A DNA stretch of 64,000 nucleotides from Olivibacter ginsenosidimutans (GCF_039542865.1 NZ_BAABIQ010000002.1:12989-76988); one strand, 5' to 3'; shown: positions 2,081-26,256, counted from the first letter of the stretch. The notes: generated from the letters alone by a model not told the origin. Made by a program: numbers and translations.

Positions 2081-4336
2081 CTATTGTGTGACATACTCGC
2101 TGAGATATCTTGCTGTGGCGGGAGTTTTATTTTTCAATAGCTGTGCCACGGTTCCTTCAAACACAATTTCACCTCCATATTTTCCGGCTCCGGGCCCCAT
2201 ATCAATAATCCAATCGGCCTGGGCAATGATGTCAAGGTTATGCTCAATCACAATAAGCGTATTGTTTTGATCAACCAGCTGATTCAGAAAATGTAATAAT
2301 TTTTGGATGTCGCTTGGATGTAGGCCAGTGCTGGGTTCATCCAAAATAAGGAGGTGATCGGTACCATTTAATTCTTTTGTTAATTTTAGTCGTTGTCGTT
2401 CCCCGCCGGAAAAAGTATCTAATCGTTGCCCGAGTGTTAGGTATTCTAGTCCCAATTGGATTAATAAGTTGAATGCTTTTGAAAACGAAGCTTCGGAGAA
2501 AAATGAATTGGCTTCAGTTATCGTGAGCTTCATGACATCGGCAATGGTATGCTTGTGATAAGTGTATTCCAAAACCTTCGGGTCATATCCCGAACCACCA
2601 CATACTTCACAGGGCTGTTCGATATCGTCTATGAAAGCAAGATCAATTTTTTCAACTCCCAGTCCTTTGCAGTTTTTGCAGGCTCCCTCACTGTTCCTGC
2701 TAAATAGTTTTTCCGATACTTGATTGGCTTCAGAAAAAAGTTTTCTAACGGTATCTGACAAATGAAGGTATGTTAATACATTGGACCTCGCGCTGCTTAC
2801 AAAGGCAGATTGGTCGATAATCGTAGCTTGAGGATAAAAATTCGGGAGCACCCCGTGGATCAAAGTACTTTTTCCAGAACCTGCTACCCCTGTAACCACT
2901 GTGAATACACCTTTCGGTATGCGTACAGAGACGTTTTTTAAATTATTTTTGGTAGCGTTTTTAATGGTTAAATATCCCTTAGCCAAGCGTGGATTTGTAT
3001 TGAAAGAAGGTCGTTGTGCAAAATAGTGTCCCGTTTTTCCGGATGATTGTTGGAGACCGGCAACCTTACCCTGATAGATGATGTCGCCACCATTTTTACC
3101 CGATGCAGGCCCCATATCTACCACCCAGTCGGCGATCTTGATCAGATCGGGATCATGTTCTACGATCAAGACCGTATTGCCTTTGTCTTTTATCCGATGG
3201 ATAATCGAAGCAATATGCTGTACGTCTTTCGGGTGCAAACCAATACTGGGTTCATCAAAGATATAGAGCAAATCAACTAAACTGCTTCCGAGGTATTTAA
3301 CCATTTTGATCCGTTGCGACTCTCCGCCCGAAAGCGTATCTGTTCGTCTATCCAGCGTTAGATATTGTAAACCGATATCACGAATATGCTGCAATTTTTT
3401 TGATATCTCCTGTAGAATGATAGTATAGGGTTCGGATGGCAGACCGTTGATAAAATACAACAATTCGTCAATAGCTAATGCGGTACAATCTGCGATGTTT
3501 TTTCCATCTATTTTACAAGACAACACCTTGTTGTTTAACCGTTGTCCCTTACATGCAGGACAGGTTTGGGTGGTAACCACTTGTTTAAGTACACTTTTGC
3601 GTGTTTTGTACGTTTTGGCATCTTTTCGTAAAAATGCTTTTTCAATCCGTGGAATCACGCCTTGATATTTTACCGTTTTACCCCAATTTTTATCAGGGTG
3701 TGGGGGTTTATGCTCAGCAGCATAGAGCAAGGTATTCCACTCGTCTTCGGTGTAATCTTTCAGCTTCTTATCGTTATCAAAATATCCGGCATATACATAA
3801 CGTGTCCAACGCCAGCCACCGGGCTGAAAGGTTGGAAACAAAATAGCACCTTCATTCAGTGACTTTTCTTGATCAATAAGCGCGGGGATATTGATGGTCT
3901 GGACAAAACCTAATCCTTCACATTGAGGACACATTCCCTGAGGATTATTAAAGGAAAAGACATTGGAATATCCTACAAAAGGCTTGCCCATTCTGGAAAA
4001 TAACAACCGCAAAGGGGCGTATACATCGGTTGCCGTACCAACAGTAGAGCGCGCATTACCGCCTAACCTTTTTTGGTTGATGATAACTGGAACATTGAGG
4101 TTTTCGATTTGATCTACATCTGCAACGCCGTAGTGCTGCAAGCGATTTCGGATAAAACTGTGCTGCGTTTCGTTTATCTGCCGTTGTGCTTCCGCACCGA
4201 TTGTTTCAAACACCAAAGACGATTTGCCTGAACCAGATACTCCCGTAAAAACGGTAATACTTTTCTTAGGGATTTCTAACGAAATATTTTTAAGGTTGTT
4301 CTGCCGTGCATGAATGATTTTAATGAAAGAAGACAT
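2081..4336 (-). CDS. UvrA-like tandem ABC ATPase, short form (class II UvrA paralog)
   Basis: 751 aa. Two Walker A sites (GVSGSGKSSL and GVAGSGKSTL), two LSGGE signatures, and UvrA-type zinc modules (CPQCEGLG, CPACKGQ, CKNCKGLG, CEVCGGSG). It is about 190 aa shorter than canonical UvrA, consistent with loss of the UvrB-binding region. Confidence 0.85.
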   Translation of the reverse strand: MSSFIKIIHARQNNLKNISLEIPKKSITVFTGVSGSGKSSLVFETIGAEAQRQINETQHSFIRNRLQHYGVADVDQIENLNVPVIINQKRLGGNARSTVGTATDVYAPLRLLFSRMGKPFVGYSNVFSFNNPQGMCPQCEGLGFVQTINIPALIDQEKSLNEGAILFPTFQPGGWRWTRYVYAGYFDNDKKLKDYTEDEWNTLLYAAEHKPPHPDKNWGKTVKYQGVIPRIEKAFLRKDAKTYKTRKSVLKQVVTTQTCPACKGQRLNNKVLSCKIDGKNIADCTALAIDELLYFINGLPSEPYTIILQEISKKLQHIRDIGLQYLTLDRRTDTLSGGESQRIKMVKYLGSSLVDLLYIFDEPSIGLHPKDVQHIASIIHRIKDKGNTVLIVEHDPDLIKIADWVVDMGPASGKNGGDIIYQGKVAGLQQSSGKTGHYFAQRPSFNTNPRLAKGYLTIKNATKNNLKNVSVRIPKGVFTVVTGVAGSGKSTLIHGVLPNFYPQATIIDQSAFVSSARSNVLTYLHLSDTVRKLFSEANQVSEKLFSRNSEGACKNCKGLGVEKIDLAFIDDIEQPCEVCGGSGYDPKVLEYTYHKHTIADVMKLTITEANSFFSEASFSKAFNLLIQLGLEYLTLGQRLDTFSGGERQRLKLTKELNGTDHLLILDEPSTGLHPSDIQKLLHFLNQLVDQNNTLIVIEHNLDIIAQADWIIDMGPGAGKYGGEIVFEGTVAQLLKNKTPATARYLSEYVTQ

Positions 4337-4343
4337 ATTTTTA

Positions 4344-4372
4344 TTAACTTTGTTAATAGTTAACTAAGTTAA
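4344..4372. promoter_or_regulatory. two inverted repeats (TTAAC-TTT-GTTAA and TTAACT-A-AGTTAA) in the 49-bp divergent intergenic region; candidate MarR operator(s)
   Basis: Perfect 5-3-5 palindrome at 4344..4356 and perfect 6-1-6 palindrome at 4360..4372. They lie between the divergent uvrA-like and marR-like start codons. Confidence 0.4.
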
Positions 4373-4385
4373 TCATTTTTTATTT

Positions 4386-4811
4386 ATGACAAAAGCACAG
4401 GAGCGATTTTTTGAAGTTTTTACTGATTTTCAATGTTACATATTAGCTAATATGAACAAAGGTGACTTCAATGGCATCACGGCAACGCATTATAATCTAG
4501 TGGAGTATATATACCGAAAGGGTAAGACAACAGGAAAGAAGCTGGCAGCCGATTTTGGTATCAGCGCTCCGGCCATATCCAAACAGGTAAAGTTTTTATT
4601 GGAAAATGATTTGCTGTATCAGGAACAAAGTGACGAAGACCGACGGATTTTCTATCTAAAAGCAACCGATAAAGGAAAGCTTTTAATCAATACTTCGGAA
4701 AGTTTTCGCGGACAAGTTACTAAACAGGCGAGTACGGTGCTTTCTAAAAAGGAATTGGAAGATTTAACCCTTTTATTGGGCAAAGTGCTTGCTCAGATGA
4801 AATCGTTATAA
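4386..4811 (+). CDS. MarR family transcriptional regulator
   Basis: 141 aa. Winged-helix region typical of MarR (GITATHYNLVEYIYRKGKTTGKKLAADFGISAPAISKQVKFLLENDLLYQEQSDEDRRIFYLKATDKGK). Divergent from the UvrA-like gene. Confidence 0.8.
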   Translation: MTKAQERFFEVFTDFQCYILANMNKGDFNGITATHYNLVEYIYRKGKTTGKKLAADFGISAPAISKQVKFLLENDLLYQEQSDEDRRIFYLKATDKGKLLINTSESFRGQVTKQASTVLSKKELEDLTLLLGKVLAQMKSL

Positions 4812-5811: not shown

Positions 5812-6042
5812 ATGATAATGAAAAATCAATGTTTAACGAGTAAAATTGGAAGTGCCGCTGTGGGACAGGCCGCAGGTGGTCGGGTAGCGCTCGGAGCGAT
5901 GGTCATAGGAGCCTTGGCTGTTGGAGCAATGGCGATTGGTGCACTCGCAATCGGTGTACTTCGCATAGGGAAAGGAAAAATTGGTAGCTTGCATATTCAT
6001 GAGCTGAAAATCGACAAACTCATTGTAAAAGATCAAAAATAG
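5812..6042 (+). CDS. small glycine-zipper membrane peptide (hypothetical)
   Basis: 76 aa with a repeated GxxxG/AxxxG motif (GALAVGAMAIGALAIGVLRIG) forming one or two predicted TM helices. No other support. Confidence 0.3.
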   Translation: MIMKNQCLTSKIGSAAVGQAAGGRVALGAMVIGALAVGAMAIGALAIGVLRIGKGKIGSLHIHELKIDKLIVKDQK

Positions 6043-6238: not shown

Positions 6239-6844
6239 ATGGCGCAACAAATAACAGACGAAATCATTGCTCAATTGAGAACCGGCAGCAAGCAGGCTTT
6301 TACACTAGTGTTTAAACAGTATTGGAAAAAACTATATGCCATTGCTTATCGACGTGTAGAAGACGAAGCCGCCGCCGAAGATATTGTACAGGAAATTTTT
6401 ATTGCTTTGTGGGATAAGCATAGTCAATTTACGATCAATAGCGCCAATATTGAATTTTATTTACTTAAAGCCGTAAAGAGCAGGGTGATCAATTACTATG
6501 TTTCGCAGAAAGTAAAAAGGGATATGTTGGCAATGGCTTTAATGCGAATGGAACAGTTTAGTGATCTTGAACAAGTAGGAGCAGGAGCACGTTATCAAGA
6601 GCTAGAAGCTTTAATCGATAAAGAGATTGATACTTTACCACCTACGATGAAGGCAATATTTTTAATGAAAAGTAATAATCACTCAATTGCCAGTATTTCC
6701 AGTACGTTAAACCTAGCCGAACAAACGGTAAAAAACAACCTCACCAAAGCTTCTCATCGCCTCCGGAAGTCACTTTTACAAAAATTTTCAGATGAGAAGC
6801 TGGCCACCATTATTGTCACTGCGTTTTTCTTCACAAAAAGTTAA
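6239..6844 (+). CDS. RNA polymerase ECF-type sigma-70 factor
   Basis: 201 aa with sigma region 2 (YWKKLYAIAYRRVEDEAAAEDIVQEIFIALW) and a C-terminal region-4 HTH. Followed by a FecR gene. A TAnnTTTG-like motif (tacttttg, 6221..6228) lies just upstream. Confidence 0.9.
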   Translation: MAQQITDEIIAQLRTGSKQAFTLVFKQYWKKLYAIAYRRVEDEAAAEDIVQEIFIALWDKHSQFTINSANIEFYLLKAVKSRVINYYVSQKVKRDMLAMALMRMEQFSDLEQVGAGARYQELEALIDKEIDTLPPTMKAIFLMKSNNHSIASISSTLNLAEQTVKNNLTKASHRLRKSLLQKFSDEKLATIIVTAFFFTKS

Positions 6845-6917
6845 CAAAAAAAACATCTGTATTGGAGGTACTTCTGGCCGGTCCGCTTGTATACCAGTAA
6901 AAGTAACATAAGTACAA

Positions 6918-7898
6918 GTGGATAAAGATCAATTTTTACTATTATTAAAAAAATACCAAGAAGATAATTTGAACGAAGAGGAGTGTGAGGTCCTGGAAAA
7001 TTGGTATAATTCTTATGGTTACAGCGAGGACATCAAACCACTGGAAAACCAATATAAAACAAAGTCCATTGAAAACCGCTTGTCTAAAAATATCTCCGGG
7101 CACATACAGCGGAAAAATACAGGCAGAATAAGGCAGGCAAGAAAATGGACAGTTGCAGCAAGCTTGCTATTGGGTTCAATTTTAGCCACTTATTGGTTTT
7201 TCCGTAGCAATATGGAAAGAACTGGTTTTGCTTCTGCAGGAGATAAAAAACCATTATACGACACAGTTTTGACGGCAATCGGAAAAATGAAAAAAATCAT
7301 TCTTCCGGATAGTTCGGAGGTTTGGCTTAATGCCAATAGCCAGATCCATTATGCCCCAACAAATTTCAGAGAAAAAAGAGACGTTTTTTTGGATAAAGGA
7401 GAAGCCTTTTTTGCTGTCGAAGAAAATCCGAAAAGTCCGTTTCAAGTTCATACCATCGATTTGAACACCCAGGTTTTAGGAACGAAGTTTAATGTGAAAG
7501 CTTATCCTGAATTGGATTACGCTACCGTCCACGTGAAAACAGGAAAGGTAAAAGTGACCACTAAACAAGGGGTTTTAATGGATACCATATCTGCAGGTAA
7601 CGGTCTGCGTTATGATCGCCTTAAAAATACCTGGCTCTCTGATAATCGTTTTGCACTACAAGCCGGGGAATGGATAGATGGCCGGATTACGCTTAATGAA
7701 GCGACTTTTGATGAGCTCGCTGCGGTGCTATATAACCGATTTCAGATTCGGTTAATCCGTGCTATGACCTTATCAAAGAATTACCGATATACCATTACTA
7801 TTTTACAGAATAAACCGTTGGAGGAAACGTTGCGGCTCATTTGTGCCGTACATCGCACTAACTACAAACAACATGGAAAAACAGTAACGATTTTTTAA
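6918..7898 (+). CDS. FecR family anti-sigma factor
   Basis: 326 aa with an N-terminal cytoplasmic segment, a single TM (WTVAASLLLGSILATYWFF), and a periplasmic FecR domain. GTG start. Confidence 0.9.
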   Translation: MDKDQFLLLLKKYQEDNLNEEECEVLENWYNSYGYSEDIKPLENQYKTKSIENRLSKNISGHIQRKNTGRIRQARKWTVAASLLLGSILATYWFFRSNMERTGFASAGDKKPLYDTVLTAIGKMKKIILPDSSEVWLNANSQIHYAPTNFREKRDVFLDKGEAFFAVEENPKSPFQVHTIDLNTQVLGTKFNVKAYPELDYATVHVKTGKVKVTTKQGVLMDTISAGNGLRYDRLKNTWLSDNRFALQAGEWIDGRITLNEATFDELAAVLYNRFQIRLIRAMTLSKNYRYTITILQNKPLEETLRLICAVHRTNYKQHGKTVTIF

Positions 7899-8016
7899 AA
7901 AAAACGGCAAGCTGCCCAGGGCTGCCTGCCGGTATCTCCATATAGCCCGTAGTCGCCAAATCACCGAGGCTATATGAATGAACCCGAATAGTTAACAATA
8001 ACGAGTATACAAATAT

Positions 8017-11000
8017 ATGAATTATGATCATAAGCTAAACCAGCTCATTATGAGAACTTTTTTGTTCGTCAGTTTCTTTTTTACCTGCGTCCAGATGCTA
8101 TTAGCCAGCCATTTGAGTGCCCAGGGAATACAAGAAAAAATTAATATTGATTTTAAAAATGAAAATTTAGCCGAGGCCATGGCTAAGTTCGGTAAGCTTA
8201 TTCCGGTACAAATGGCTTACGATGGCACGCTACTACAGCTCTCGAATCATCGCATAAAGGCAAAACATTTTGAAGAAACCGAAGCACAGGAAATATTAAC
8301 TTACCTCTTGTCTAATACTGGGATTACTTATCAAGAAAGTGATGGTAATATTGTGCTGATTAAACGCAATCAGTTGCAACAGTTGAGCAGCATTACTGGT
8401 CAAGTAAAAGATCAGTCTGGCGCACCGCTCCCAGGAGCTAATGTGACGCTCATTGAACTGCAAAAAACCGTGAGTACAGATGAGGAAGGTAATTTTCGAC
8501 TGAGCGTGCCACCAGGGACATATACCCTCGAAGTGAGTTATGTTTCCTATGAATCGCAACGACGAGAATCCATACAAATAACTGAAAATCAGAAATTAAC
8601 AATCAATTTTGATCTTAAAGAGGCAAAGGGCGTGCTTAGCGAGGTGGTGGTCATTGGTTATGGAGAGATGAAGAAAAGTGATTTATCGGCGGCTGTATCC
8701 ACCGTTCCAGATCTAGAGCAAGCCACTAAAAGACCCTTGGTAGATGTTCCCAGCATGATCCAGGGAAAAGTGCCTGGTGTAACGGTGGTTAGTAATGGAG
8801 GGCATCCCAATAGCACTCCTAAAATTACGATTCGAGGTACCGGATCCATTCAGAACGAAGATCCTTTAGTCGTTGTAGATGGTGTACCCAATGCGCCCTA
8901 TAACCCAGCAGATGTAGAATCGATCACGGTACTAAAAGATGCTGCTTCTGCTGCAATTTATGGTGCATTTGCCGGAGCATCGGGAGTTATACTCATCACC
9001 ACGAAACAGGCCAAAATCGGTGCACCGAGTATTCAGTATGATGCCTTTGCAGGCGCAAAAAGCGCTTGGCGATTACCACAATCGCTTACCGGCGAGCAGG
9101 AAGCCCAAGTGTACAACCAAGCTTATGCAACGGCAGGTCTAAATCTGCCTGATGGTTGGGATGCAACAAAAAATCCGGATGCGCAGATAACACGCACCGA
9201 TTGGATTAATGAGATTTTTCGTACTGGTTTAACTCACCGTCATACCCTAACAGTGAATGCGGGAACGGATAAATTTGCGACTCTCTTGCAAGGACGATAT
9301 GAAAAAAATGAAGGAACCTTATTAAATACCTTCAATGAAAACCTTTCTTTACGCTTTAATGCCCGTTACGATTTTACCGATCATCTGAAATTAAAGCAAG
9401 AGGTTTTTTATAATAACAATAGCAGCCGAGGTACCGAAACAGCCAGTGGGTACAGCGGTGCTATTATTTCGGCTATTTATATGCCACGATCAGCAAGCGT
9501 GTATTATCCTGACGGTAGCTTTGGGGGTGTAGGGCCAAAGGATTCGGAGTACCTTGGTATTTTTGGGGATGCCATTAATCCAGTAGCAACCTTATTACGA
9601 AATGATTCCTATAATAAAACAAATGATATTCAATCTATATCCGAATTATCATATTCCGATATTATCCCGGGATTGGATGTATTGTCTCGATTCTCGTACT
9701 ATCAATCAAATCTGTTTTACAAGAATTTCGATCCTCGTCGTACGGAACCGGGTAAACCCAACGATCAGAATATCCTGAGTTACGATGCCGATAAAAATTA
9801 CCATTGGATCTGGGAAAATACGCTGAACTATACCCGCTCTTTCGGAAAACACAATATAGGCGCCATGTTATCCACTACTGCTCAGACAGCTGTATTAAGG
9901 GGATTTGGTATTGCAGCCCGTGATTTTGAACGGGAAGATTATTGGGCACAATTTTTTATCAATGCCTCCGATTTTGATACCGATAGGCCTACGGATAGCC
10001 AAAGTGAAGACCGTAACGTGTCTTATGTCGGTCGTTTATCGTATAGCTGGGCCGATCGTTATTTTGTCACGGCAAGTTATCGAAAAGATATTGCCGGACG
10101 TTTGCCAAAAGGTTACCAAGGGAAGGGGCTCCCAGGTTTAACAGCGGCTTGGAAACTAAGTTCAGAACCATTTTTTAAGGTGTCTGGTATCGATTTATTG
10201 AAATTCCGGGCAAGCTGGGGACGCATCGGAAACTTGTCGACCATACCGATTAATTATGGTTACCAAACCTTGAGCAGTAACACCACGTACCAAATTGGGG
10301 ATGGAGCGCCTATTACCACCGCTTGGTATATTGCTAACCAGTTTAATCCTGCTCTTTCTTGGGAAACTTCCGAACAAATTGACATAGGAATGGACCTGAG
10401 TATACTACAGGAGCGTCTAACCATGACCGCCGACTATTTTAAAAAGAAAACGTATGATCTGATTCAAGATAAAACAACCGATTGGCCAAATACTTTCGGC
10501 TTAGGATCACCTAAAATTAACGAAGGAGAAATTCGCAATGAAGGTTTAGAATTAGCCTTAAACTGGAAAGACAAGATAGGCGAAGTATCGTACAATATTG
10601 GCGGCAATGTGGCCACCTTGAAAAACCGAGTCAGTTATATCTCTGAAGATCCGGATGCATTTTGGACCCACGGAGATGCATGGAGAGGTATTTTAACACC
10701 ATTCCGTTCAAAGGTTGGAGAACCATACTATTCTTATTGGTTGGTACAGACGAATGGATTATTCCAAAGCGATGCGGAAGCTCAATCCTATGTAGGTCCT
10801 GAAGGTACTCCCATACAACCAGATGCAAAAGCCGGCGATTTGAAGTTTGTTGACCAGAATAATGATGGACAGATTAATGATCTCGACCGCGTTTATATGG
10901 GCAATGCTTTTCCTAAATTTACCTATGGTTTTACAGCAAACCTGAACTGGAAAAACTTCGACCTTAGCTTATTTTTACAGGGTGTCGGTGGCGCGAAACT

Positions 11001-11385
11001 GTTCAACGCTTTTAAGCAATCTACCTTGAATGCCGGTGAACAAGGCTATAACCGTTGGGATAAAATCCTAGATGCTTGGTCTGCCTCAAACACCGATTCA
11101 GATATTCCGCGTATCAATGCGAAAGATCCTAACAAAAACTTTTCAACGAACTCAGACTGGTTTTTGGAGAGTGGAAATTACCTCCGTTTAAAAAATGTAA
11201 TGTTGGGTTATACTTTTTTCAAACTTCCGCGAAACATGAAATTACATGTTTACATCACCGGAGAAAATTTACTCACTTTTACCCAATATAGTGGAATGGA
11301 TCCAGAAGTAGGCGGAGTGGGGATGGACGGAGGACAATATCCGGTTTCCAGGTCCTATGCATTGGGTGTTAACTTAACGTTTTAA
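8017..11385 (+). CDS. SusC/RagA family TonB-linked outer membrane protein with N-terminal STN signalling domain
   Basis: 1122 aa with signal peptide, STN domain, carboxypeptidase-regulatory-like domain, plug and beta-barrel. It ends in Phe and is immediately followed by a SusD-like gene. Confidence 0.9.
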   Translation: MNYDHKLNQLIMRTFLFVSFFFTCVQMLLASHLSAQGIQEKINIDFKNENLAEAMAKFGKLIPVQMAYDGTLLQLSNHRIKAKHFEETEAQEILTYLLSNTGITYQESDGNIVLIKRNQLQQLSSITGQVKDQSGAPLPGANVTLIELQKTVSTDEEGNFRLSVPPGTYTLEVSYVSYESQRRESIQITENQKLTINFDLKEAKGVLSEVVVIGYGEMKKSDLSAAVSTVPDLEQATKRPLVDVPSMIQGKVPGVTVVSNGGHPNSTPKITIRGTGSIQNEDPLVVVDGVPNAPYNPADVESITVLKDAASAAIYGAFAGASGVILITTKQAKIGAPSIQYDAFAGAKSAWRLPQSLTGEQEAQVYNQAYATAGLNLPDGWDATKNPDAQITRTDWINEIFRTGLTHRHTLTVNAGTDKFATLLQGRYEKNEGTLLNTFNENLSLRFNARYDFTDHLKLKQEVFYNNNSSRGTETASGYSGAIISAIYMPRSASVYYPDGSFGGVGPKDSEYLGIFGDAINPVATLLRNDSYNKTNDIQSISELSYSDIIPGLDVLSRFSYYQSNLFYKNFDPRRTEPGKPNDQNILSYDADKNYHWIWENTLNYTRSFGKHNIGAMLSTTAQTAVLRGFGIAARDFEREDYWAQFFINASDFDTDRPTDSQSEDRNVSYVGRLSYSWADRYFVTASYRKDIAGRLPKGYQGKGLPGLTAAWKLSSEPFFKVSGIDLLKFRASWGRIGNLSTIPINYGYQTLSSNTTYQIGDGAPITTAWYIANQFNPALSWETSEQIDIGMDLSILQERLTMTADYFKKKTYDLIQDKTTDWPNTFGLGSPKINEGEIRNEGLELALNWKDKIGEVSYNIGGNVATLKNRVSYISEDPDAFWTHGDAWRGILTPFRSKVGEPYYSYWLVQTNGLFQSDAEAQSYVGPEGTPIQPDAKAGDLKFVDQNNDGQINDLDRVYMGNAFPKFTYGFTANLNWKNFDLSLFLQGVGGAKLFNAFKQSTLNAGEQGYNRWDKILDAWSASNTDSDIPRINAKDPNKNFSTNSDWFLESGNYLRLKNVMLGYTFFKLPRNMKLHVYITGENLLTFTQYSGMDPEVGGVGMDGGQYPVSRSYALGVNLTF

Positions 11386-11396
11386 TGATTTGATCC

Positions 11397-12999
11397 ATGA
11401 TAAAGATAATTCAATATAGCAAATATTTCCTGAGCGTGTTTACAACACTAACCCTGTGGTCTTGTTCGAAAGACTGGGTAGATACGAAACCTTACGGTAG
11501 TCCATCTACAGGAACATTTTGGCAAAGTGAAAAAGATATCGAGCAAGCTTTAAATGCCATGTATGTGCCCATGCGGTATGAATCAACTTGGGGGCGCGAC
11601 TTGTTTAGTATGCAAAATGCGAGCGACGACATTATCACCGGAAGGGTGAAGGCAGATTTCGATAATATTAAAAATTTTATTCCTACGGGAAGGGAAGGCT
11701 ATATGTCTGCGGGTTGGAATGATGTATACTGGATGATGAATAAAGCCAACCAAGCTATACAGGGCATACCAACAACAGAGAACGTTAGTGATGAGGTAAA
11801 AAACAAAGCATTGGGAGAAGCTTATTTTATGCGTGCCTTCGCTCATTTTTGGATGGCGTATTTGTGGGGACATAAAGATCAGGGTGTACCATTTGACGGG
11901 CCCGAAAATCCGGAATATGGTAACCGGATTGCGCCACAATTGCCCTCAGTTACCGATAACTATGCTCAAATTATCAGCGATCTCGAAAAAGCGGCTGATT
12001 TGCTACCCCTGTTTGCTACCTATTCGGATGCCCAAAAAGGCAGAGCACATAAGGTGGCAGCATGGGGATATATGGTAAAAACCTACGCGTATTGGGCACA
12101 ATACGATCCTTCTAAATGGGAATTGATCCCTGCTTTAGTTGACCGGATAAGGGATGAGGGTGGTCGAGCCTTGATTACCGGAAAAGGTAGCGGTAAAGAA
12201 AATTTTCGCGCGGTATTTAAAATTGAAAATAATTGGGGTTCGGAATATATATGGTCGGTAACCTCGGGCACCCAAGGTGGTTCGGAATTCCTAGGGGTTG
12301 TATTGGAAAATACAGGTTGGGGTGCTTATAACGGTTGGGGCTATTTTACGCCTACCGAAGAACTGTATGATGCCTTCGAAACGGGTGCCGAGGAGGGGTA
12401 TTACGGTGCTAAATTTTGGCGATAAGTTTACGTTTTTTGGACAGGAACGTGAATATTATTCAACCAATAGCCTTTCCGGTTTTATGATGGGCAAATACCT
12501 GGATCCCTATACGTATGGTTCAAATGGTGAATCAGGATCGAATGATATGATCAATCAAAATGGGGATTATCCTACCACTCGGCTAAACCTGCCCTTAATG
12601 CGTTATGCCGAGATGTTATTGTTTAAGGCAGAGGCATTGCTAATGACGGGTAGAAACAGTGATGCAGCAGAACCTCTGAACGAAATTCGAAATAGGGTAG
12701 GCTTACCCATTATTAGCAATCCAACACTCGCCGATTTAAAACATGAAAGGAGAGTGGAATTAGCCTGTGAATGGACCGATCGAGTGGCTGATTTAAAACG
12801 CTGGGGTGATTTTGACTATTTAAGGATGGCTTTGCATGGACGCGATCATGTGCGTAAAACCGATCCACATTCGGATTATAAGGTTATTGAAGTGTGGCCA
12901 GCGCGTAATTTCGATCCGAATAAACATATGGCTTGGCCAATTAACCCAGATGAGATTGCAAAAAGCAATGGTGTTTATAAACAAACACCTGGCTGGTAA
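11397..12999 (+). pseudogene. SusD/RagB family lipoprotein interrupted by a frameshift in a T4 run (12414..12417); may be a sequencing error rather than a true pseudogene
   Basis: ORF 11397..12425 has a lipoprotein signal (LWSC) and a SusD-like N-terminus. ORF 12298..12999 continues the SusD C-terminus in the +1 frame. Removing one T from aaatttt joins them as ...GAKFGDKFTFFGQ... to give a protein of about 530 aa. Confidence 0.7.
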
Positions 13000-19324: not shown

Positions 19325-22300
19325 CTATAACGTTTCCATAAACATTTTTCTAATCTGTTGGTGGTATTTTTGTGGACTTACTCGTAAAAAAATGGTAATT
19401 AAGTCGGTCGATATAGGTTTCAATGTAGCATAACGATACTGCATTAAAAATTGGTGTAGGGCATTATTCACGTTATCTTCACCAATAAGCTGGGCAAGCT
19501 TAACCATCACAACGGCACCCTTGGAATAGGATATATGCGTATTTTCATCGGTTACCCGATAAAGGGCTTGCGGTTTTGAAAAACCACTTGATGCCCTGTA
19601 AATCTGCTCGTGAACCTTTAAGTGTTGCAACATTTTTTCTCTCCCGTGCACCTGTTTATAAAGCATCATCTCGGTATACATGGCCAAGGTTTCGGTAAGC
19701 ATAGCTGCTCCTTCACGCTGATCTGGATCAATTTGGTTACCGCCCCACCACATATGTGAAAGTTCGTGTCCCACCAATTCGACAATCACATCTTGTTGTT
19801 CATCAGCATGTACGTTAGCATGAAAAAGCATATCTTCTGTCATAAAGACCGTGCTCGGATAGGCAGTAGCCGCAAAGCCACGGGTAAAGCTGGAAATTTC
19901 CGCAAAAGTAAGGGAATGAAATGGATAAGAACCAAAGTTCTGTTCGCAATAGGCTAAAGTACGTTTAGCATTTTGGATTAATTGAGACACGTTTTCGGTA
20001 TGTTCGGGATGATAATAGACAGAAATAGGCAAATCCTTGTAATGGTCTTTTTGAACACGATAGGTAGCTGATGACAATCCAAAACGAAAGGGTATAGGGC
20101 TGCTACTACGATATCGGAAGTAATTTCGGTGGTTTCGTGTCCAGGTCTGTATTAACTCGCCCGTACCCACAACATGCTGATCGCCTGAGGTGGAAACAAG
20201 CATATCCAAATGAATAAAATCATCGGTACTATCTCTTGGTGCATCGACTTTTTTATCTGGACTAACAGAACCTAAATCATATAGGGCACGTTGACTAGCT
20301 TGATCAATTTCACGGCTTCGCTGATAGCCAATTTGCGGAAAATATCTACTGATACGAATAAAGCTGCCATTGTTGACGATAGCATTAAATGATTGATGCC
20401 CATTGACCGCATGCCCAGTGAATGATAAATGAAACTGTAACTGTGCAGTAGCGCCGGGAGCTAGCGGATTGGTCAAGCATAATTCACTAACAGCCTTGTT
20501 AAAGGTATGTTTTTCCGCGGTAGAAGTGTATATGGCCCGAATAATATGGAAATCGTCAGGTATATTAATCAATATTCGATCGATATGGTGTTTACTTTTG
20601 TTTTGAAGCTGATACACACCTTTTAATTGATAAGCATGCTGCACCGGATAGAGTGCAATTTCTGTGCTTACATGGGTAATAGTAGGCTGAGGCAAGTGTT
20701 CATATATTTTATATCGCTTTTCATAGGTAGCTGATGCATATAAAACGGTCTGCTCATCACGTGGAAAATAACCTTGTTGAAAGGTGTAACCACTGTAAAG
20801 CCCAAATGCCAGCGAGCAGCATATGGCTAACAATGGGCGCCATCCAAGTTTTCGTCGCCTGATACTCCAATCGATTATAACTACGATAAGTAAGATGGAA
20901 AAACAAAAAAACATTCGGTAAATTGCACTGAACAAATAGAAATCATAACCGTTGAAATCGCTGAAGGGTCCGTGGTAGGTTGAAAAAAACTGGAATAAGG
21001 GAAAGGGAATCAGTTGTTTGTAAAAAGGGCTTTGCGCAAAGATCGCAATCGTTAGGGATAAGGTTAAAGCGAAATAACGCTGTTTCACCCAACTATGGAG
21101 CAATAACACTAGTACACTGAAAAACAATAGGGGCAAGGTATTAAAAACAAAAATGCCAAGATAGCCCCTCCAGTGAATATGAGGATAATGATAAGCATAT
21201 TGAAATAAGATACCTTCTATTACCATCAATAAGCTGAAGAACAGTAGTAGCAGAAATACCGATAGCATATGCCCTATCTGTTTTGTTTTGGCATAATAGG
21301 TAGCATTCTCCAATACATCAAATGCTGAAGCCTGACTGCGTGCATAAAGATCGTTGACGATATAAGCAAAAAGTAACATTGCTAATGGATGAAAACTTTC
21401 ACAGATGGTGGTTGTCATCAATCCGGTTCTGGCATACTGCTGTGGCAAGCGGATGCCCTGATCAATTGCTGCATACAACTCCATTCCAACATAAAATAAA
21501 ATGATGATGCTCATGCAAAACAAGATGATGCTCTTACCTATATATAAAAGATCCTTTTTCGTAAAAGACCAAATAGCACTTAGAAAATTTAAACGACGAA
21601 AGCTGGGTTCGATACCGACCAATGGCAATGTATGAGCGAGCTTTGTGGATATTGAAATTGGTTTGGCTTTGGCGCGCGACATTGTGCCATGAAAGGATAA
21701 GCGAAAATGGCCCGCAGCAATAAAAAACATGCTTAAAATCAGGATGATGCATCTATTGATGAGAAAATAGCCGCTTAAAGGAACAAGAAAATTATTACGC
21801 GCCACTACACTAAAATGGCTACTCTCAAAGAAATAGGCCGATAATCCATAAGGATCAACACATGCAGATAACCGTTGAACGAACAAAGATTGTGGTAAAC
21901 TACTGGCCATGAAAGGCGAATCGGAAAATACCAATAGTATTATATAGGGTATGTAAAGGCATAAACCACTAATGGCGGTTAATAGCTTTTTGCGCGTATG
22001 CCAAGCTATAAAATAGAGTACGCTACAGGTGAATAGCGTGTTAATAAAGCCAAACACCAAAAAAGCATAGCCGTAGTGAAAAAGATTTGAATGGACCTGT
22101 ATATCTGGCCCACTACGCAATTGTTGGCCAACAGTGAAACCGATGATTAGCCATAAAAAACTGCTGAAGACCAGACAGAAAAAAGAGGAGAATCGACCAA
22201 GGCTAAAGGTAAGTTTATTGATCGGTGTACTGAACAAAATGGCGTCAATATGTGTGTCCCACTCTTTAAACAGCAATTGGCAACCCAAAATAGTCGCTAT

Positions 22301-22495
22301 AAAAATGACCGACAGACTCAATATGCCGATTAAAAACCCAATAGTATAAGGCGAATTCACATAAATACCCTCACCAATTGAAAAATTAAATCGCATGCCT
22401 GCAAATAGTCCCATACCTATTAGCATGGATGCCAATAGGTATGCTGAAAAACGCCTAAGATAAGGAGTAATGTCAAAGCGAAAAATAGCGTTCAT
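19325..22495 (-). CDS. fusion protein: ABC-2 type transporter permease (about 12 TM) + M1-family gluzincin aminopeptidase domain
   Basis: 1056 aa. The N-terminal ~600 aa are highly hydrophobic multi-TM. The C-terminal ~450 aa have HELSHMWWGG (HExxH) and a downstream Glu ligand (AMLTETLAMYTE), the M1 zinc site. The start ATG overlaps the stop of the upstream ABC ATPase (ATGA). Confidence 0.8.
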   Translation of the reverse strand: MNAIFRFDITPYLRRFSAYLLASMLIGMGLFAGMRFNFSIGEGIYVNSPYTIGFLIGILSLSVIFIATILGCQLLFKEWDTHIDAILFSTPINKLTFSLGRFSSFFCLVFSSFLWLIIGFTVGQQLRSGPDIQVHSNLFHYGYAFLVFGFINTLFTCSVLYFIAWHTRKKLLTAISGLCLYIPYIILLVFSDSPFMASSLPQSLFVQRLSACVDPYGLSAYFFESSHFSVVARNNFLVPLSGYFLINRCIILILSMFFIAAGHFRLSFHGTMSRAKAKPISISTKLAHTLPLVGIEPSFRRLNFLSAIWSFTKKDLLYIGKSIILFCMSIIILFYVGMELYAAIDQGIRLPQQYARTGLMTTTICESFHPLAMLLFAYIVNDLYARSQASAFDVLENATYYAKTKQIGHMLSVFLLLLFFSLLMVIEGILFQYAYHYPHIHWRGYLGIFVFNTLPLLFFSVLVLLLHSWVKQRYFALTLSLTIAIFAQSPFYKQLIPFPLFQFFSTYHGPFSDFNGYDFYLFSAIYRMFFCFSILLIVVIIDWSIRRRKLGWRPLLAICCSLAFGLYSGYTFQQGYFPRDEQTVLYASATYEKRYKIYEHLPQPTITHVSTEIALYPVQHAYQLKGVYQLQNKSKHHIDRILINIPDDFHIIRAIYTSTAEKHTFNKAVSELCLTNPLAPGATAQLQFHLSFTGHAVNGHQSFNAIVNNGSFIRISRYFPQIGYQRSREIDQASQRALYDLGSVSPDKKVDAPRDSTDDFIHLDMLVSTSGDQHVVGTGELIQTWTRNHRNYFRYRSSSPIPFRFGLSSATYRVQKDHYKDLPISVYYHPEHTENVSQLIQNAKRTLAYCEQNFGSYPFHSLTFAEISSFTRGFAATAYPSTVFMTEDMLFHANVHADEQQDVIVELVGHELSHMWWGGNQIDPDQREGAAMLTETLAMYTEMMLYKQVHGREKMLQHLKVHEQIYRASSGFSKPQALYRVTDENTHISYSKGAVVMVKLAQLIGEDNVNNALHQFLMQYRYATLKPISTDLITIFLRVSPQKYHQQIRKMFMETL

Positions 22496-23418
22496 AAGCG
22501 TGCTTCAAAAGTATGTAAATAGGTGAAATAAACATGTTCTAGGGTAGGTTCGGCTAGTTGAAAATCTGTAAGTGGCACCGTTGAAAATACAGTGATATGT
22601 AGTTTTTTGGCAATCAATTGCTCGCTAATTATAGTATAACGAGAAGCATAATCTGACAGTGTTGATCGATCAATGGCTTTGGTCCATAGTTTACCGTTAA
22701 GTTTAGCAATTAACCGTCCGGGTTCTCCTGTGATCAATACCTCGCCATGTTGCATAATAGCCATTTGAGAACAAAGATGATACACATCCGTCACCAAATG
22801 TGTAGAAAGGATGACGACAATCTCTTCGCTGATTTCACCGAGCAAATTGTTCAACCGGTTTCGCTCCTCTGGGTCTAAACCTGCTGTAGGCTCGTCTACA
22901 ATGATCAGCTTAGGATTTCCTAACAGTGCCTGTGCAATGCCAAAACGCTGTTTCATACCTCCAGAAAATGTATGGACTTCCCGAGCCCCATGAGCGGTTA
23001 AATTGACTTTATCGAGCAAAGCGAGTATTTGTGTTTTGCGAGCAGTAACATCATGTACTCCCTTTTAAACGGCAAGATGTTGTAGGAGTTGATACGCGGA
23101 TAATTTGGGATAAACACCAAAATCTTGCGGCAGATACCCAAGGTTTTGCTTAACATAAGCCGGATCTCGAACGACATCGTGTTGGTTAAAATAAATTGAA
23201 CCCGAACTTGGTTGCTGCATACCTACAATTGTTTTCATCAAAGATGATTTACCGGCACCATTTGGTCCCAACAGGCCAAACATACCCTGACCAATCTCAA
23301 GCGAGACATTGTTTAAAGCCTGTACGCCATTTTTATACGTGAGACAAAGTTGTTGAATGGATAAGTTGTTCATAACAGTTAATTTTTGGACAATAGTATG
23401 GCAGGCAATGCAATACAT
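22492..23418 (-). pseudogene. ABC transporter ATP-binding protein interrupted by an in-frame TAA stop (codon at 23065..23067)
   Basis: N-terminal ORF 23065..23418 carries Walker A (GPNGAGKSS). C-terminal ORF 22492..23019 carries the signature FSGGMKQRF and Walker B (IIVDEPTAGLD). Both are in the same frame. Read-through gives ...QHLAV*KGVHDVTARKTQILALLDKVNL..., so a single TTA->TAA change would explain the stop. Confidence 0.75.
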
Positions 23419-23656: not shown

Positions 23657-24193
23657 CTATATAATTAAATCTTGTTCGCGTTGTAAATAAAGACCCTGTG
23701 TAAAAATACTTGCTAAAAAGTAGCTAAATATACCTAAAATCAAATGTACAGATACCAAAGCCCAGATAACGCTTTCGATTGGTACAAAAAAACTTGCTAC
23801 GATGGTCGCAACACTTGGTATCCATACATTTAATTGATAAAACCTTTTTAGGTGCAGCACATGTGATGATATAAATAATTTTGCTTGGAAAAACACTTTA
23901 AACACATTTGCCGCCAACCAAAAGAAAATCCCATACAACATGATAGGCAATAAAAGGGAAAAGAGCATATACGACCAACTATTTTCCAATAAAAGAAACG
24001 CCTTTTGGGAAAAGGGGTAATTAATACGTAGGTATTGATTATTGCTATAACTTGCTATACTCCAACCACTGATTAAGCAGAGAGCACTGTAAATACCAGT
24101 GCCTAAATACGCAATAGCCGCTATGCGGGTAACGTAAAAAAGTATCTTGGATATTAATCTCGTTTGATTCATGGTAAAAAAATTATGATGCAA
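23657..24193 (-). CDS. DUF2975-like membrane protein (partner of YozG-type HTH)
   Basis: 178 aa with 4-5 predicted TM helices. It is the first gene of a tightly packed minus-strand operon. Confidence 0.55.
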   Translation of the reverse strand: MHHNFFTMNQTRLISKILFYVTRIAAIAYLGTGIYSALCLISGWSIASYSNNQYLRINYPFSQKAFLLLENSWSYMLFSLLLPIMLYGIFFWLAANVFKVFFQAKLFISSHVLHLKRFYQLNVWIPSVATIVASFFVPIESVIWALVSVHLILGIFSYFLASIFTQGLYLQREQDLII

Positions 24194-24464: not shown

Positions 24465-24989
24465 ATGGAGACAGGCCAGTGGACATTTCAGAAAATAGCG
24501 TCATTTAAACGCCTATTCCAGTTTTATTGGGAAAGAGTGTTTGCACATTGTCTATTTTATTCAAAAGATCTGAATACCTCTAAAGATTTAACACAGAATA
24601 TTTTTCTCGATTTGTGGGAGAGGGGTAAGGAGTTTCCGGATCAAGAAAGTTTGGAAAAATACCTGTCTCGTTGTGCAAAATACCAAGTACTGAATTACTT
24701 TCACTATCAGAACACTACACAAAGATGCCCAATAGAGGATATACCCGAACAACCCGATTATCGGAATAATCCGGAATACCTATTTCAATATAAACAACTC
24801 GCCGAAAATCTTGAACGTTTGATTGATTCGCTACGAGAACCATGCCGTACGGTTTTTTGTATGAGTAGAAAACAAAATCTTAGCCATAAAGCCATCTCTA
24901 ACCAAATGGGCATATCCATTAGTACAGTGGAGTATCACATGAGCAATGCGCTACGTTACCTTCGAAAACAATTAGAAGCCCAACGCTAA
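24465..24989 (+). CDS. RNA polymerase ECF-type sigma-70 factor
   Basis: 174 aa with sigma region 2 (DLTQNIFLDLWERG) and region 4 (SHKAISNQMGISISTVEYHMSNALRYLRKQ). Followed by a FecR gene. Confidence 0.85.
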   Translation: METGQWTFQKIASFKRLFQFYWERVFAHCLFYSKDLNTSKDLTQNIFLDLWERGKEFPDQESLEKYLSRCAKYQVLNYFHYQNTTQRCPIEDIPEQPDYRNNPEYLFQYKQLAENLERLIDSLREPCRTVFCMSRKQNLSHKAISNQMGISISTVEYHMSNALRYLRKQLEAQR

Positions 24990-25155
24990 ACCTTTTTTAT
25001 TTTTTTTTAACTGATTTACAGTGCCTTGATAAAATCTTTTATTTTTTCACTGGGGTAACGCTTCCTTACTGTTAGATACCATAAATGGATGGAAGATTTG
25101 ACCTGCCAATGCATGCCCAGCCATGGCTGCGAAAGGTGGATAAAAACCAGGTGAA

Positions 25156-26100
25156 ATGGATAGAATAGATCCCGAGCTATTAAAAAGATATGCGGATGGA
25201 AGCTGCACAGATGAGGAACGCGCTATCGTGGAGGAGTGGTTAGATAAGGAGGATAATTTATTTGATCAAGAAGCTGAACCATTGCCGCAATACCAGTTGG
25301 ATAAACAGAAACGCGCACTATGGAATAGTTTTGTCGAAAAAGCTTTCCTGTACTCTGCAAGATTAAGATGGTGGAGATGGAGTTTGTATGTCAGTCTATT
25401 GGTATTGACAGGACTGGCCATACAAAGTATTTTCCACACCATACAGATCTATAAAGCTCCTGTAGTAATGCATACTCAAGAAGTACCACCGGGTAAAAAT
25501 TTGAAGCTCGTTTTGCCGGATAGCAGTACTGTTTGGCTTGCTGGGGGAAGCACATTGCGTTACCCGGAAACGTTTGCCGACTCTTTGCGTGAATTAAATT
25601 TGGTAGATGGAGAAATCTATTTACATGTTGTGCAAAAAAAGAACCAACCCTTCCGGCTTATTACCGATGGGGCGGTCATTCAGGTTTTGGGTACGCGTTT
25701 CTATGTAGAAAATCGACAGCATAATACACGTATGCGGATTGCACTTGAAGAGGGCAGCATTCGCTTTAGCCGAGGTACTAGTCGACAACTCCTTCAGCCA
25801 GGCGATCAATTGAGCTATTGGAAAGCAGATAGTACGTTCGAGATGCACCGCATTGCTCCAACTGATATTGCTAGATGGAGCAATGGCTTAATCCAATTTA
25901 ATCATACCGTCTTGCAGGAAGCGCTAGAAAAATTGGAAAACCATTACGGGGTTCGGTTTTTAATAGAGGGAAATCCAAACCTGAAACAACCGATAACAGG
26001 CAAATTTGATAACCTTCCGCTATCCCGTGTACTGCATCTTATGGAAGGCGTAACCAACCTGCACTTTAAGCAAGAGGGAAAAACAATAAAAATCAATTAA
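25156..26100 (+). CDS. FecR family anti-sigma factor
   Basis: 314 aa with a zinc-finger-like N-terminus (DGSCTDEERAIVEEWL), a single TM and a FecR periplasmic domain. Confidence 0.9.
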   Translation: MDRIDPELLKRYADGSCTDEERAIVEEWLDKEDNLFDQEAEPLPQYQLDKQKRALWNSFVEKAFLYSARLRWWRWSLYVSLLVLTGLAIQSIFHTIQIYKAPVVMHTQEVPPGKNLKLVLPDSSTVWLAGGSTLRYPETFADSLRELNLVDGEIYLHVVQKKNQPFRLITDGAVIQVLGTRFYVENRQHNTRMRIALEEGSIRFSRGTSRQLLQPGDQLSYWKADSTFEMHRIAPTDIARWSNGLIQFNHTVLQEALEKLENHYGVRFLIEGNPNLKQPITGKFDNLPLSRVLHLMEGVTNLHFKQEGKTIKIN

Positions 26101-26256
26101 TAAAAAAGAGGTATGACGAAAAAAAATAGGGCTAGCCCTGCCATTGGCTTGTTAAGCAATTCAGTTACATAAAAAGTACCGTCAGCGTGTTCCAGCACGC
26201 CGACGGATAAATACATCAATTTTTCAATTCATGATTTAATTAAGAACTTAAAACTA

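Follow-up and report, generated by a model that had tools for sequence, protein, structure and literature searches.

A short UvrA paralog and its divergently transcribed regulator

In Olivibacter ginsenosidimutans (Sphingobacteriaceae), a 64-kb window, i.e., the whole stretch of DNA that was analyzed, contains a gene for a short paralog of UvrA (uvrA2) and, divergent from it, a gene for a MarR-family regulator (marR), the two start codons being separated by a short, AT-rich spacer with two inverted repeats (Table 1). The UvrA paralog matches a database entry for this species at 100% identity. The limits of both open reading frames (ORFs) and of the spacer proved exact on rechecking, and the observation, made in a preliminary description of the locus, of a short UvrA paralog, a MarR gene, and palindromes is confirmed. 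Below, we describe the two proteins, the predicted operator between their genes, and the distribution of the pair, and we weigh what the pair might do.

Table 1. Features of the uvrA2-marR locus, in positions of the 64-kb window
Feature	Position	Strand	Remarks
uvrA2, predicted 751-aa class II (IIa-type) UvrA paralog	2081..4336	-	ATG start; tandem ABC ATPase modules, insertion domain, and zinc modules 2 and 3
Zinc module 3 (C553, C556, C576, C579), in second signature domain	2600..2680	-	Invariant; aligns with CxxC...CxxC of Ecm16 and UvrA
Insertion domain, residues 140 to 258	3563..3919	-	Flanked by the zinc module 2 cysteine pairs C136/C139 and C259/C262
Junction KPFVGYS, codons 119 to 125	3962..3982	-	Stands where the UvrB-binding domain and zinc module 1 sit in canonical UvrA
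Divergent control region between the two start codons	4337..4385		49 bp, 12% G+C
Predicted operator box beside the uvrA2 start, TTAACTTTGTTAA	4344..4356		Plus strand holds TAACTTTG, a match to the -7 element TAnnTTTG, facing marR
Predicted operator box beside the marR start, TTAACTAAGTTAA	4360..4372		Minus strand holds TAACTTAG, a near-match to the -7 element, facing uvrA2
marR, 141-aa MarR-family winged-helix regulator	4386..4811	+	Member of a subfamily dedicated to short UvrA paralogs
Cys17 codon (TGT)	4434..4436	+	Sole cysteine of the regulator; candidate sensing residue

Among the PDB matches of the UvrA paralog, the closest solved relative was Ecm16 (7SH1; 699 bits), the echinomycin self-resistance protein of Streptomyces lasalocidi (PMC10192343), which bears out the class II precedent that had been named for the protein from the start. 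A BLASTP alignment with the residues of Ecm16 was colinear from end to end, at 46% identity. Class I UvrAs scored 507 to 547 bits, and UvrA2 of Deinococcus radiodurans (2VF7/2VF8) scored 488 bits; the latter is likewise a class II protein without a UvrB-binding domain, but its score is lower than those of the class I proteins and its chain, at 842 residues, is longer.

Aligned with UvrA of Thermotoga (3PIH), residues 7 to 119 of the paralog correspond to residues 6 to 118, and residues 125 to 500 correspond to residues 265 to 631. A six-residue junction takes the place of approximately 146 canonical residues (Thermotoga 119 to 264), which make up the UvrB-binding domain and zinc module 1, and the alignment with the Bacillus UvrA (2R6F) shows the identical break. 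No intact UvrB-binding domain was seen, in agreement with the earlier suggestion that the protein is short through loss of this region. A second gap, of about 25 residues, follows the Walker A motif of the second ATPase domain (Thermotoga 631 to 662). Since the first cysteine of the paralog is residue 136, zinc module 1 was lost along with the UvrB-binding domain; the full zinc-module layout initially ascribed to the protein must therefore be corrected to two modules out of three, namely, modules 2 and 3. The four cysteines of module 2 are invariant in the family and align with those of Ecm16, and a DnaJ_CXXCXGXG-like Pfam match covers residues 550 to 584, around module 3. In Ecm16, the equivalent cysteines have been assigned to zinc modules 2 and 3 (PMC10192343). 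The insertion domain contains a match to Pfam UvrA_DNA-bind (residues 155 to 244; 25.3 bits against a cutoff of 23.2) and is the least conserved region of the protein, with identities of 33% to Ecm16, 47 to 51% to proteins of the Firmicutes cassettes described below, and 64% to a Dyadobacter protein.

Both ATPase sites of the ATP-binding cassette (ABC) modules are intact in sequence. The first is made up of GVSGSGKS (residues 32 to 39), LSGGE (335 to 339), FDE (360 to 362), and H394, and the second is made up of GVAGSGKS (483 to 490), FSGGE (642 to 646), LDE (665 to 667), and H699; across 13 family members, neither site varies in its Walker A and B, signature, Q-loop, or H-loop residues. Canonical class I UvrAs (2R6F and 3PIH) share this ATPase core with the paralog, as well as the signature domains, the insertion domain, and zinc modules 2 and 3, but they possess the residues equivalent to Thermotoga 119 to 264, and the paralog stays below the cutoffs of both NCBIfam models of canonical UvrA (TIGR00630, 711.4 against 729.8; NF001503, 695.8 against 1147). 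Judged by its sequence, the protein is a class IIa UvrA, with all the features by which that class has been delimited (PMC9328131), and it falls outside the bounds of a housekeeping UvrA. Database records of the family carry such different names as "excinuclease ABC subunit UvrA," "ATP-binding cassette domain-containing protein," and "daunorubicin resistance protein DrrC." The subthreshold model scores contradict the name of excinuclease subunit.

The regulator matched the Pfam families MarR (PF01047; 35.5 bits, cutoff 24.6) and MarR_2 (PF12802; 36.4 bits, cutoff 27), while none of the NCBIfam models reached its cutoff against it. The PDB held no close solved relative (best E value, 1.4e-5), with MgrA among the nearest sequences. 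An AlphaFold model built from 21 sequences (pLDDT [predicted local distance difference test] 88) displayed the standard MarR order of helices and wing, and Foldseek matched it, at a probability of 1.00, to FabT, HsmR, ZitR, MexR, MepR, and MarR. In this model, Cys17 lies in helix 1 (residues 3 to 23). It is retained in 65 of 65 Bacteroidota orthologs and in all 124 full-length members from both Bacteroidota and Firmicutes. Conservation in the regulator peaks in helices 1 and 2 and where helix 5 begins (Q16, C17, I19, G30, T32, Y36, S104, E105, F107, and R108). In MarR structures, the effector pocket is formed by the region of helices 1, 2, and 5, and the conservation found there therefore implies a single, conserved signal. 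Both the conserved pocket and Cys17 would be compatible with a signal that is received either through ligand binding or through thiol modification.

The known divergent, autoregulated MarR repressors (MarR, SlyA, MepR, OhrR, and MgrA) resemble this regulator in their winged-helix fold and in the palindromes of a shared promoter region but differ from it in their targets, which are efflux pumps or peroxidases, where the neighbor here is a UvrA paralog. A single N-terminal cysteine is a feature of one-Cys OhrR, MgrA, and SarZ, with the sensing cysteine in helix 1. The position of Cys17 is in line with that subgroup; the score against the OhrR model and control of a peroxidase gene are not. Membership of OhrR itself was rejected, as the curated OhrR model gave 19.6 bits against a cutoff of 200 and the regulated neighbor is a UvrA paralog instead of ohr. 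A metal sensor of the AdcR/ZitR type was rejected as well, given a weak model match that was confined to residues 42 to 108 and a His35 that is not conserved in the Firmicutes members.

A predicted tandem operator in the 49-bp spacer

Both boxes in the spacer represent a single unit, TTAAC-N3-GTTAA, which recurs with a period of 16 bp, and together they form a 31-bp near-palindrome (positions 4343 to 4373). Two perfect inverted repeats had been reported at the outset; both are present, with correct coordinates and sequences, although the second of them, TTAACT-N-AGTTAA, turned out to be a subreading of the second copy of TTAAC-N3-GTTAA and not a motif of its own. On the basis of base composition, 0.17 exact occurrences of TTAACNNNGTTAA would be expected in 64 kb, and two were seen, both of them within the 49-bp spacer. 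With one mismatch allowed, the window count was 5 and the expected count 5.0. Since the latter count equals chance, statistics from a single window are weak for such an AT-rich spacer.

Strong support for an operator, which we regard as the decisive support, comes instead from conservation across species. At least one exact copy of TTAACNNNGTTAA was found at the same place in 65 of 81 upstream regions of Bacteroidota uvrA2 genes; two copies were spaced 16 bp apart in 38 of the 81 and 22 bp apart in 5. The full double palindrome occurred once per locus, always at the spacer position. In the 63 regions that could be aligned, the information content was 1.73 bits per position over the 29-bp operator core and 0.74 over the 12-bp flanks. 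We therefore consider the tandem palindromes, by all appearances from sequence, to be the predicted operator of the MarR protein, conserved together with the regulator across two phyla.

The boxes also coincide with putative promoter elements. The consensus of the Bacteroidota -7 promoter element, known from promoters of Bacteroides and Flavobacterium, is TAnnTTTG. Facing marR, an 8-mer in the box beside uvrA2 fits this consensus in 62 of 63 distinct orthologous regions, and, facing uvrA2, the box beside marR holds TAACTTAG in 45 and TAACTTTG in 11 of the 63 (56 of 63). Because each box holds a match to the -7 element, a repressor bound to the boxes would occlude both promoters. A scan with a sigma-70 promoter model, a model not suited to Bacteroidota, yielded no excess of matches over shuffled sequences (15 against 11.3).

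Occurrence, mobility, and surroundings of the gene pair

With each species represented by a single genome, a scan found a UvrA paralog of 67 to 91% identity at 80 loci, all of them in Bacteroidota, in genera that include Olivibacter, Sphingobacterium, Pedobacter, Chitinophaga, Niabella, Chryseobacterium, Flavobacterium, Myroides, and Dyadobacter. The divergent MarR gene and the 49-bp spacer that had been described for the window are part of a conserved arrangement: in 64 of the 80 loci, spanning Sphingobacteriia, Chitinophagia, Flavobacteriia, and Cytophagia, a MarR ortholog (47 to 88% identity) lies adjacent to, upstream of, and divergent from uvrA2, with spacers of 45 to 70 bp. Clustering of all ORFs of the 80 loci revealed no third gene that was broadly kept, only lineage-specific synteny within Chryseobacterium. 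Since the other neighbors are not broadly conserved and the flanks differ between species, the unit consists of uvrA2 and marR. The remaining 16 loci, without MarR, mostly have more divergent paralogs and unrelated upstream genes.

The cassette extends to Firmicutes. A profile search with regulators of this kind gave 424 relatives, and, among the best 120 listed, those with an organism name all belonged to Bacteroidota or Firmicutes. A translated search of plasmids recovered short UvrA genes of 50 to 57% identity in records of Clostridium, Listeria, Enterococcus, Staphylococcus, Exiguobacterium, and Deinococcus. On plasmid pCM008-A of Clostridium tagluense, a MarR gene lies behind uvrA2 in the same orientation; its product is 32% identical to that of the window and has the same Phe-Gln-Cys motif. 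Four further loci (Pelosinus, a Caproiciproducens-like organism, Alkaliphilus, and Anaerosalibacter) have the MarR gene 11 nt 3' of a gene for a 755- to 779-aa UvrA that is 55 to 56% identical to the window paralog. In Brevibacillus laterosporus (our locus L087, 2471 to 5402), an 827-aa UvrA-like gene, with 34% identity, is directly followed by a Cys17-type MarR gene. In the Brevibacillus protein, the two CxxC pairs of zinc module 1 are kept but stand no more than about 33 residues apart, which leaves no UvrB-binding domain, and the protein would seem, from this layout, to be a second structural route to a UvrB-independent UvrA. In summary, all six Firmicutes loci sampled have a Cys17-type MarR gene 4 to 11 nt downstream of a short UvrA gene of 755 to 827 aa.

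The same operator design recurred at these six loci. When 54,122 positions were scanned for two 13-bp palindromes resembling TTAAC-N3-GTTAA at a 16-bp period, the top-scoring tandem palindrome of each locus was situated just upstream of the short uvrA gene, for example, TTAACCCAGTTAT-ATA-TTTACACGGTAAT, and at the five 755-aa loci the pair directly follows a TTGCAA-N17-TAAAAT promoter.

Some of the Firmicutes cassettes reside on mobile DNA, i.e., on plasmids or beside relaxase and recombinase genes. A 2,973-bp block containing the promoter and operator, uvrA2, and marR is 96.3% identical between the C. tagluense plasmid (L081, 3838 to 6810) and a second contig (L089, 1574 to 4546) that also bears relaxase, MobC, and serine recombinase genes, and the flanks of the two blocks are unrelated. 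This combination of a near-identical block and unrelated flanks indicates recent horizontal transfer, with the cassette moving as a unit. For the Olivibacter cassette, a compositional signature of recent transfer was ruled out, its G+C content and its G+C content at third codon positions being 0.38 to 0.42, against 0.40 for the window. As a separate observation, the Olivibacter cassette is nearer to that of Niabella, a member of another class (UvrA paralog, 74 to 75%; MarR, 69%; L005 and L006), than to those of Sphingobacterium, of its own family (70 to 73% and 53 to 57%; L033 to L062), which hints at lateral transfer within Bacteroidota even though the base composition is not anomalous.

Pfam was run on the ORFs of the window that are 150 aa or longer, apart from about a dozen in the 150- to 350-aa range. 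As had been stated, uvrA2 is not embedded with uvrB or uvrC, neither of which was found among the ORFs scanned, and no ORF of polyketide synthase or nonribosomal peptide synthetase size is present in the whole window. The scanned ORFs encode a mannitol-dehydrogenase-family enzyme, a reductase-like protein, phosphatases, peptidases, transporters, and two separate sets of extracytoplasmic function (ECF) sigma factor, FecR anti-sigma factor, and TonB-dependent receptor (6239 to 11385 and 24465 to 28915), with SusC and SusD among the families matched. The first of these sets is followed by SusD, a PI-PLC (phosphatidylinositol-specific phospholipase C)-like protein, and an alkaline phosphatase. A SusD-family gene appears to be split into overlapping ORFs in different frames (11397 to 12425, SusD-like_3, N-terminal part; 12298 to 12999, SusD_RagB, C-terminal part), which suggests a frameshift or a sequencing error. 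At 19325 to 23019 (minus strand), a 175-aa ORF with only the C-terminal part of an ABC ATPase, which may be truncated or misstarted, adjoins a 1,056-aa ORF ending in an M1 peptidase domain. No Pfam family was matched, at an E value of ≤1e-5, by the ORFs at 52877 to 54790 (minus strand, 637 aa), 30142 to 31488 (plus strand, 448 aa), and 23657 to 24193 (minus strand, 178 aa) or by a Gly/Ala-rich ORF of 76 aa at 5812 to 6042 (plus strand).

A possible role in DNA protection

What is known of Ecm16 offers a starting point for interpretation. Its resistance function needs ATPase activity and is retained when uvrA, uvrB, uvrC, or uvrD is knocked out, UV repair is not complemented by it, and drug-loaded DNA, which stimulates ATP hydrolysis, is bound approximately five-fold more tightly than bare DNA (PMC9328131, PMC10192343). 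Drug specificity is set by the insertion domain, as replacement by that of DrrC (32% identical) abolished resistance (PMC10192343). Like the window protein, Ecm16 has lost the UvrB-binding domain and zinc module 1 and has kept zinc modules 2 and 3 and the insertion domain, with likewise four ATP sites per dimer. Ecm16, however, is encoded in the biosynthetic cluster of a producer among the Actinobacteria, whereas the window gene lies outside any such cluster in a member of the Bacteroidota; we found no report of a MarR partner for Ecm16. DrrC of Streptomyces peucetius, the daunorubicin resistance protein, is, like the window protein, UvrA-like and devoid of a UvrB-binding domain; its gene is drug inducible, according to the title of a study cited in PMC10413001, and is part of a cluster in a producer. 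With no such cluster among the ORFs scanned, the window gene differs in location from the cluster-borne self-resistance genes of the DrrC, Ecm16, and MtrX type. The name DrrC in Chryseobacterium records is an annotation transfer.

Taken together, we think it probable that uvrA2 and marR constitute a self-contained, repressor-controlled, repair-independent DNA-protection cassette of two genes. Of this, the analysis itself establishes the domain architecture, the integrity of the ATPase and zinc motifs, the constant pairing of the two genes, and the conservation of the operator. The MarR protein would act as a dedicated repressor of uvrA2 and of its own gene, most likely with two dimers on the adjacent 13-bp palindromes, one on each, and since the palindromes cover both putative -7 elements, both divergent genes would be shut off until a signal arrives. 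The signal might be sensed in the pocket of helices 1, 2, and 5 containing Cys17, either as a small-molecule ligand or through a chemical change at the thiol. The protein then induced would be a class II UvrA that acts as a dimer, binds DNA, and carries two ABC ATPase modules; its recruitment of UvrB should be impossible because the UvrB-binding domain is absent. By analogy with Ecm16, from which alone independence of UvrB, UvrC, and UvrD, an ATPase stimulated by ligand-loaded DNA, and drug resistance are taken, we infer that the Olivibacter ATPase may recognize DNA with a bound toxic ligand or a distortion and clear it by ATP hydrolysis, without the excision machinery. Candidates for both inducer and substrate are DNA-binding drugs and reactive electrophiles.

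Several points weigh against this proposal or narrow it. Half-site centers 8 bp apart, in a 13-bp palindrome, make a site shorter than is usual with many MarR dimers; that of SlyA, TTAGCAAGCTAA, is of comparable size. Elements of the -33 type were not consistently found at the expected distance in the orthologous regions, which makes the promoter assignment tentative. The 16 Bacteroidota loci that have no MarR gene show that the effector need not be accompanied by the regulator. No biosynthetic or drug-producer gene cluster was found nearby among the window ORFs scanned. Furthermore, since the specificity-setting insertion domain shares just 33% identity with its Ecm16 counterpart, the substrate of Ecm16 cannot be carried over to the window protein, for which neither a quinomycin nor an anthracycline should be assumed. 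Finally, double mutants of class II UvrAs in Xanthomonas and Pseudomonas putida are slightly more UV sensitive, according to work cited in PMC9328131, and, given such small effects of other class II UvrAs, full independence from excision repair is not certain. The interpretation that had been put forward for the locus is supported in part; tolerance of intercalators in particular finds no clear support, given the divergent insertion domain and the lack of a producer cluster among the scanned ORFs, and the conserved cysteine and the aldehyde-gene neighbors of more distant plasmid copies point equally to an electrophile signal.

The latter idea, which in its strict form is the main rival, holds that the cassette answers electrophile stress: the MarR protein would be a one-cysteine thiol switch, alkylated or oxidized at Cys17 by aldehydes, quinones, or peroxides, and the UvrA paralog would handle DNA adducts or DNA-protein cross-links and not noncovalent intercalators. 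We consider this rather unlikely, although a sole cysteine that is invariant throughout two phyla and sits in helix 1, the site of the OhrR, MgrA, and SarZ sensing cysteines, in a protein with MgrA among its nearest solved sequences, is what such a switch would call for. Many members, moreover, come from strict anaerobes (Clostridium, Pelosinus, and Alkaliphilus), for which selection by actinomycete intercalators is, in our judgment, unlikely. Plasmids of Staphylococcus and Exiguobacterium (L082, L083, and L086) carry short UvrA genes (~50% identity) close to those for zinc alcohol dehydrogenases, HxlA, and a DJ-1/PfpI protein, surroundings that look like an aldehyde or electrophile detoxification neighborhood, but these copies lack the Cys17 MarR (a small winged-helix regulator is encoded nearby), and the clustering of ORFs from the 80 loci showed no gene for aldehyde or peroxide detoxification to be conserved beside the cassette. 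The OhrR model score remains a tenth of its cutoff, the structural neighbors of the regulator are the ligand-binding MarRs FabT, MexR, MepR, and MarR, and a conserved cysteine can merely line a ligand pocket.

A second alternative, which strikes us as improbable, would keep the paralog within excision repair, as an auxiliary damage sensor that backs up or modulates canonical UvrA through heterodimers or lesion marking and thereby aids the repair of UV damage or bulky adducts. Retention of the whole DNA-binding and ATPase core of UvrA would fit this, as would the slight UV sensitivity of the Xanthomonas and P. putida mutants mentioned above. Against it stand the absence of the UvrB-binding domain, the independence of Ecm16 from the excision-repair proteins together with its failure to complement uvrA, and the lack of a UV phenotype upon deletion of UvrA2 in Deinococcus (PMC9328131); a repair gene, in addition, would be expected to be damage inducible and not under dedicated MarR control, and the paralog travels as part of a mobile two-gene unit. 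As for an antiphage or antiplasmid defense system related to MADS, the PADLOC mad3 profile does match the second ATPase module (residues 531 to 743) at 228 bits, which suggests that MAD3 is itself a UvrA-type ABC module, but this reading is very improbable and was ruled out on gene content, since MADS is an eight-gene operon with a methyltransferase in which MAD3 is only an accessory (bioRxiv 10.1101/2023.03.30.534895), the match to the mad3/mad8 profiles is partial and confined to one ATPase module, the other mad genes, including the mandatory mad6 to mad8, are not present at the locus, and the sole conserved neighbor is MarR.

Returning to the DNA-protection cassette, we tentatively entertain a wider version of it, possible rather than probable, in which it is an ancient, horizontally mobile "DNA decontamination" cassette of Bacteroidota and Firmicutes that are not known as makers of DNA-binding drugs. 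Cys17 would then directly sense a DNA-reactive electrophile or a quinone-type DNA ligand, and the ATPase would free DNA of the adduct, ligand, or cross-linked protein independently of excision repair.

The protein class as such is known, class II UvrAs in Bacteroidetes having been mentioned already (Marszalkowska 2013, as cited in PMC9328131), and work on uvrA-like genes has centered on actinobacterial gene clusters (PMC10413001). In the literature, we found no description of a dedicated, Cys-bearing MarR paired with a class II UvrA, of the tandem operator, or of a mobile cassette shared by two phyla, MarR mentions in UvrA papers being judged by title and abstract.

Class II UvrAs are spread over several phyla, and the authors of the Ecm16 studies called their role "unclear" except in a handful of antibiotic producers (PMC9328131). 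A co-inherited repressor, a conserved operator, and an invariant cysteine together provide a handle on this role, as the signal that releases the repressor should reveal what the ATPase protects DNA against. If the cassette gives tolerance to DNA-targeting drugs, it would be a mobile resistance determinant hidden under the annotation "excinuclease ABC subunit UvrA." If, on the other hand, the DNA decontamination reading is true, class II UvrAs outside antibiotic producers would gain both a physiological role and an inducer that are defined.

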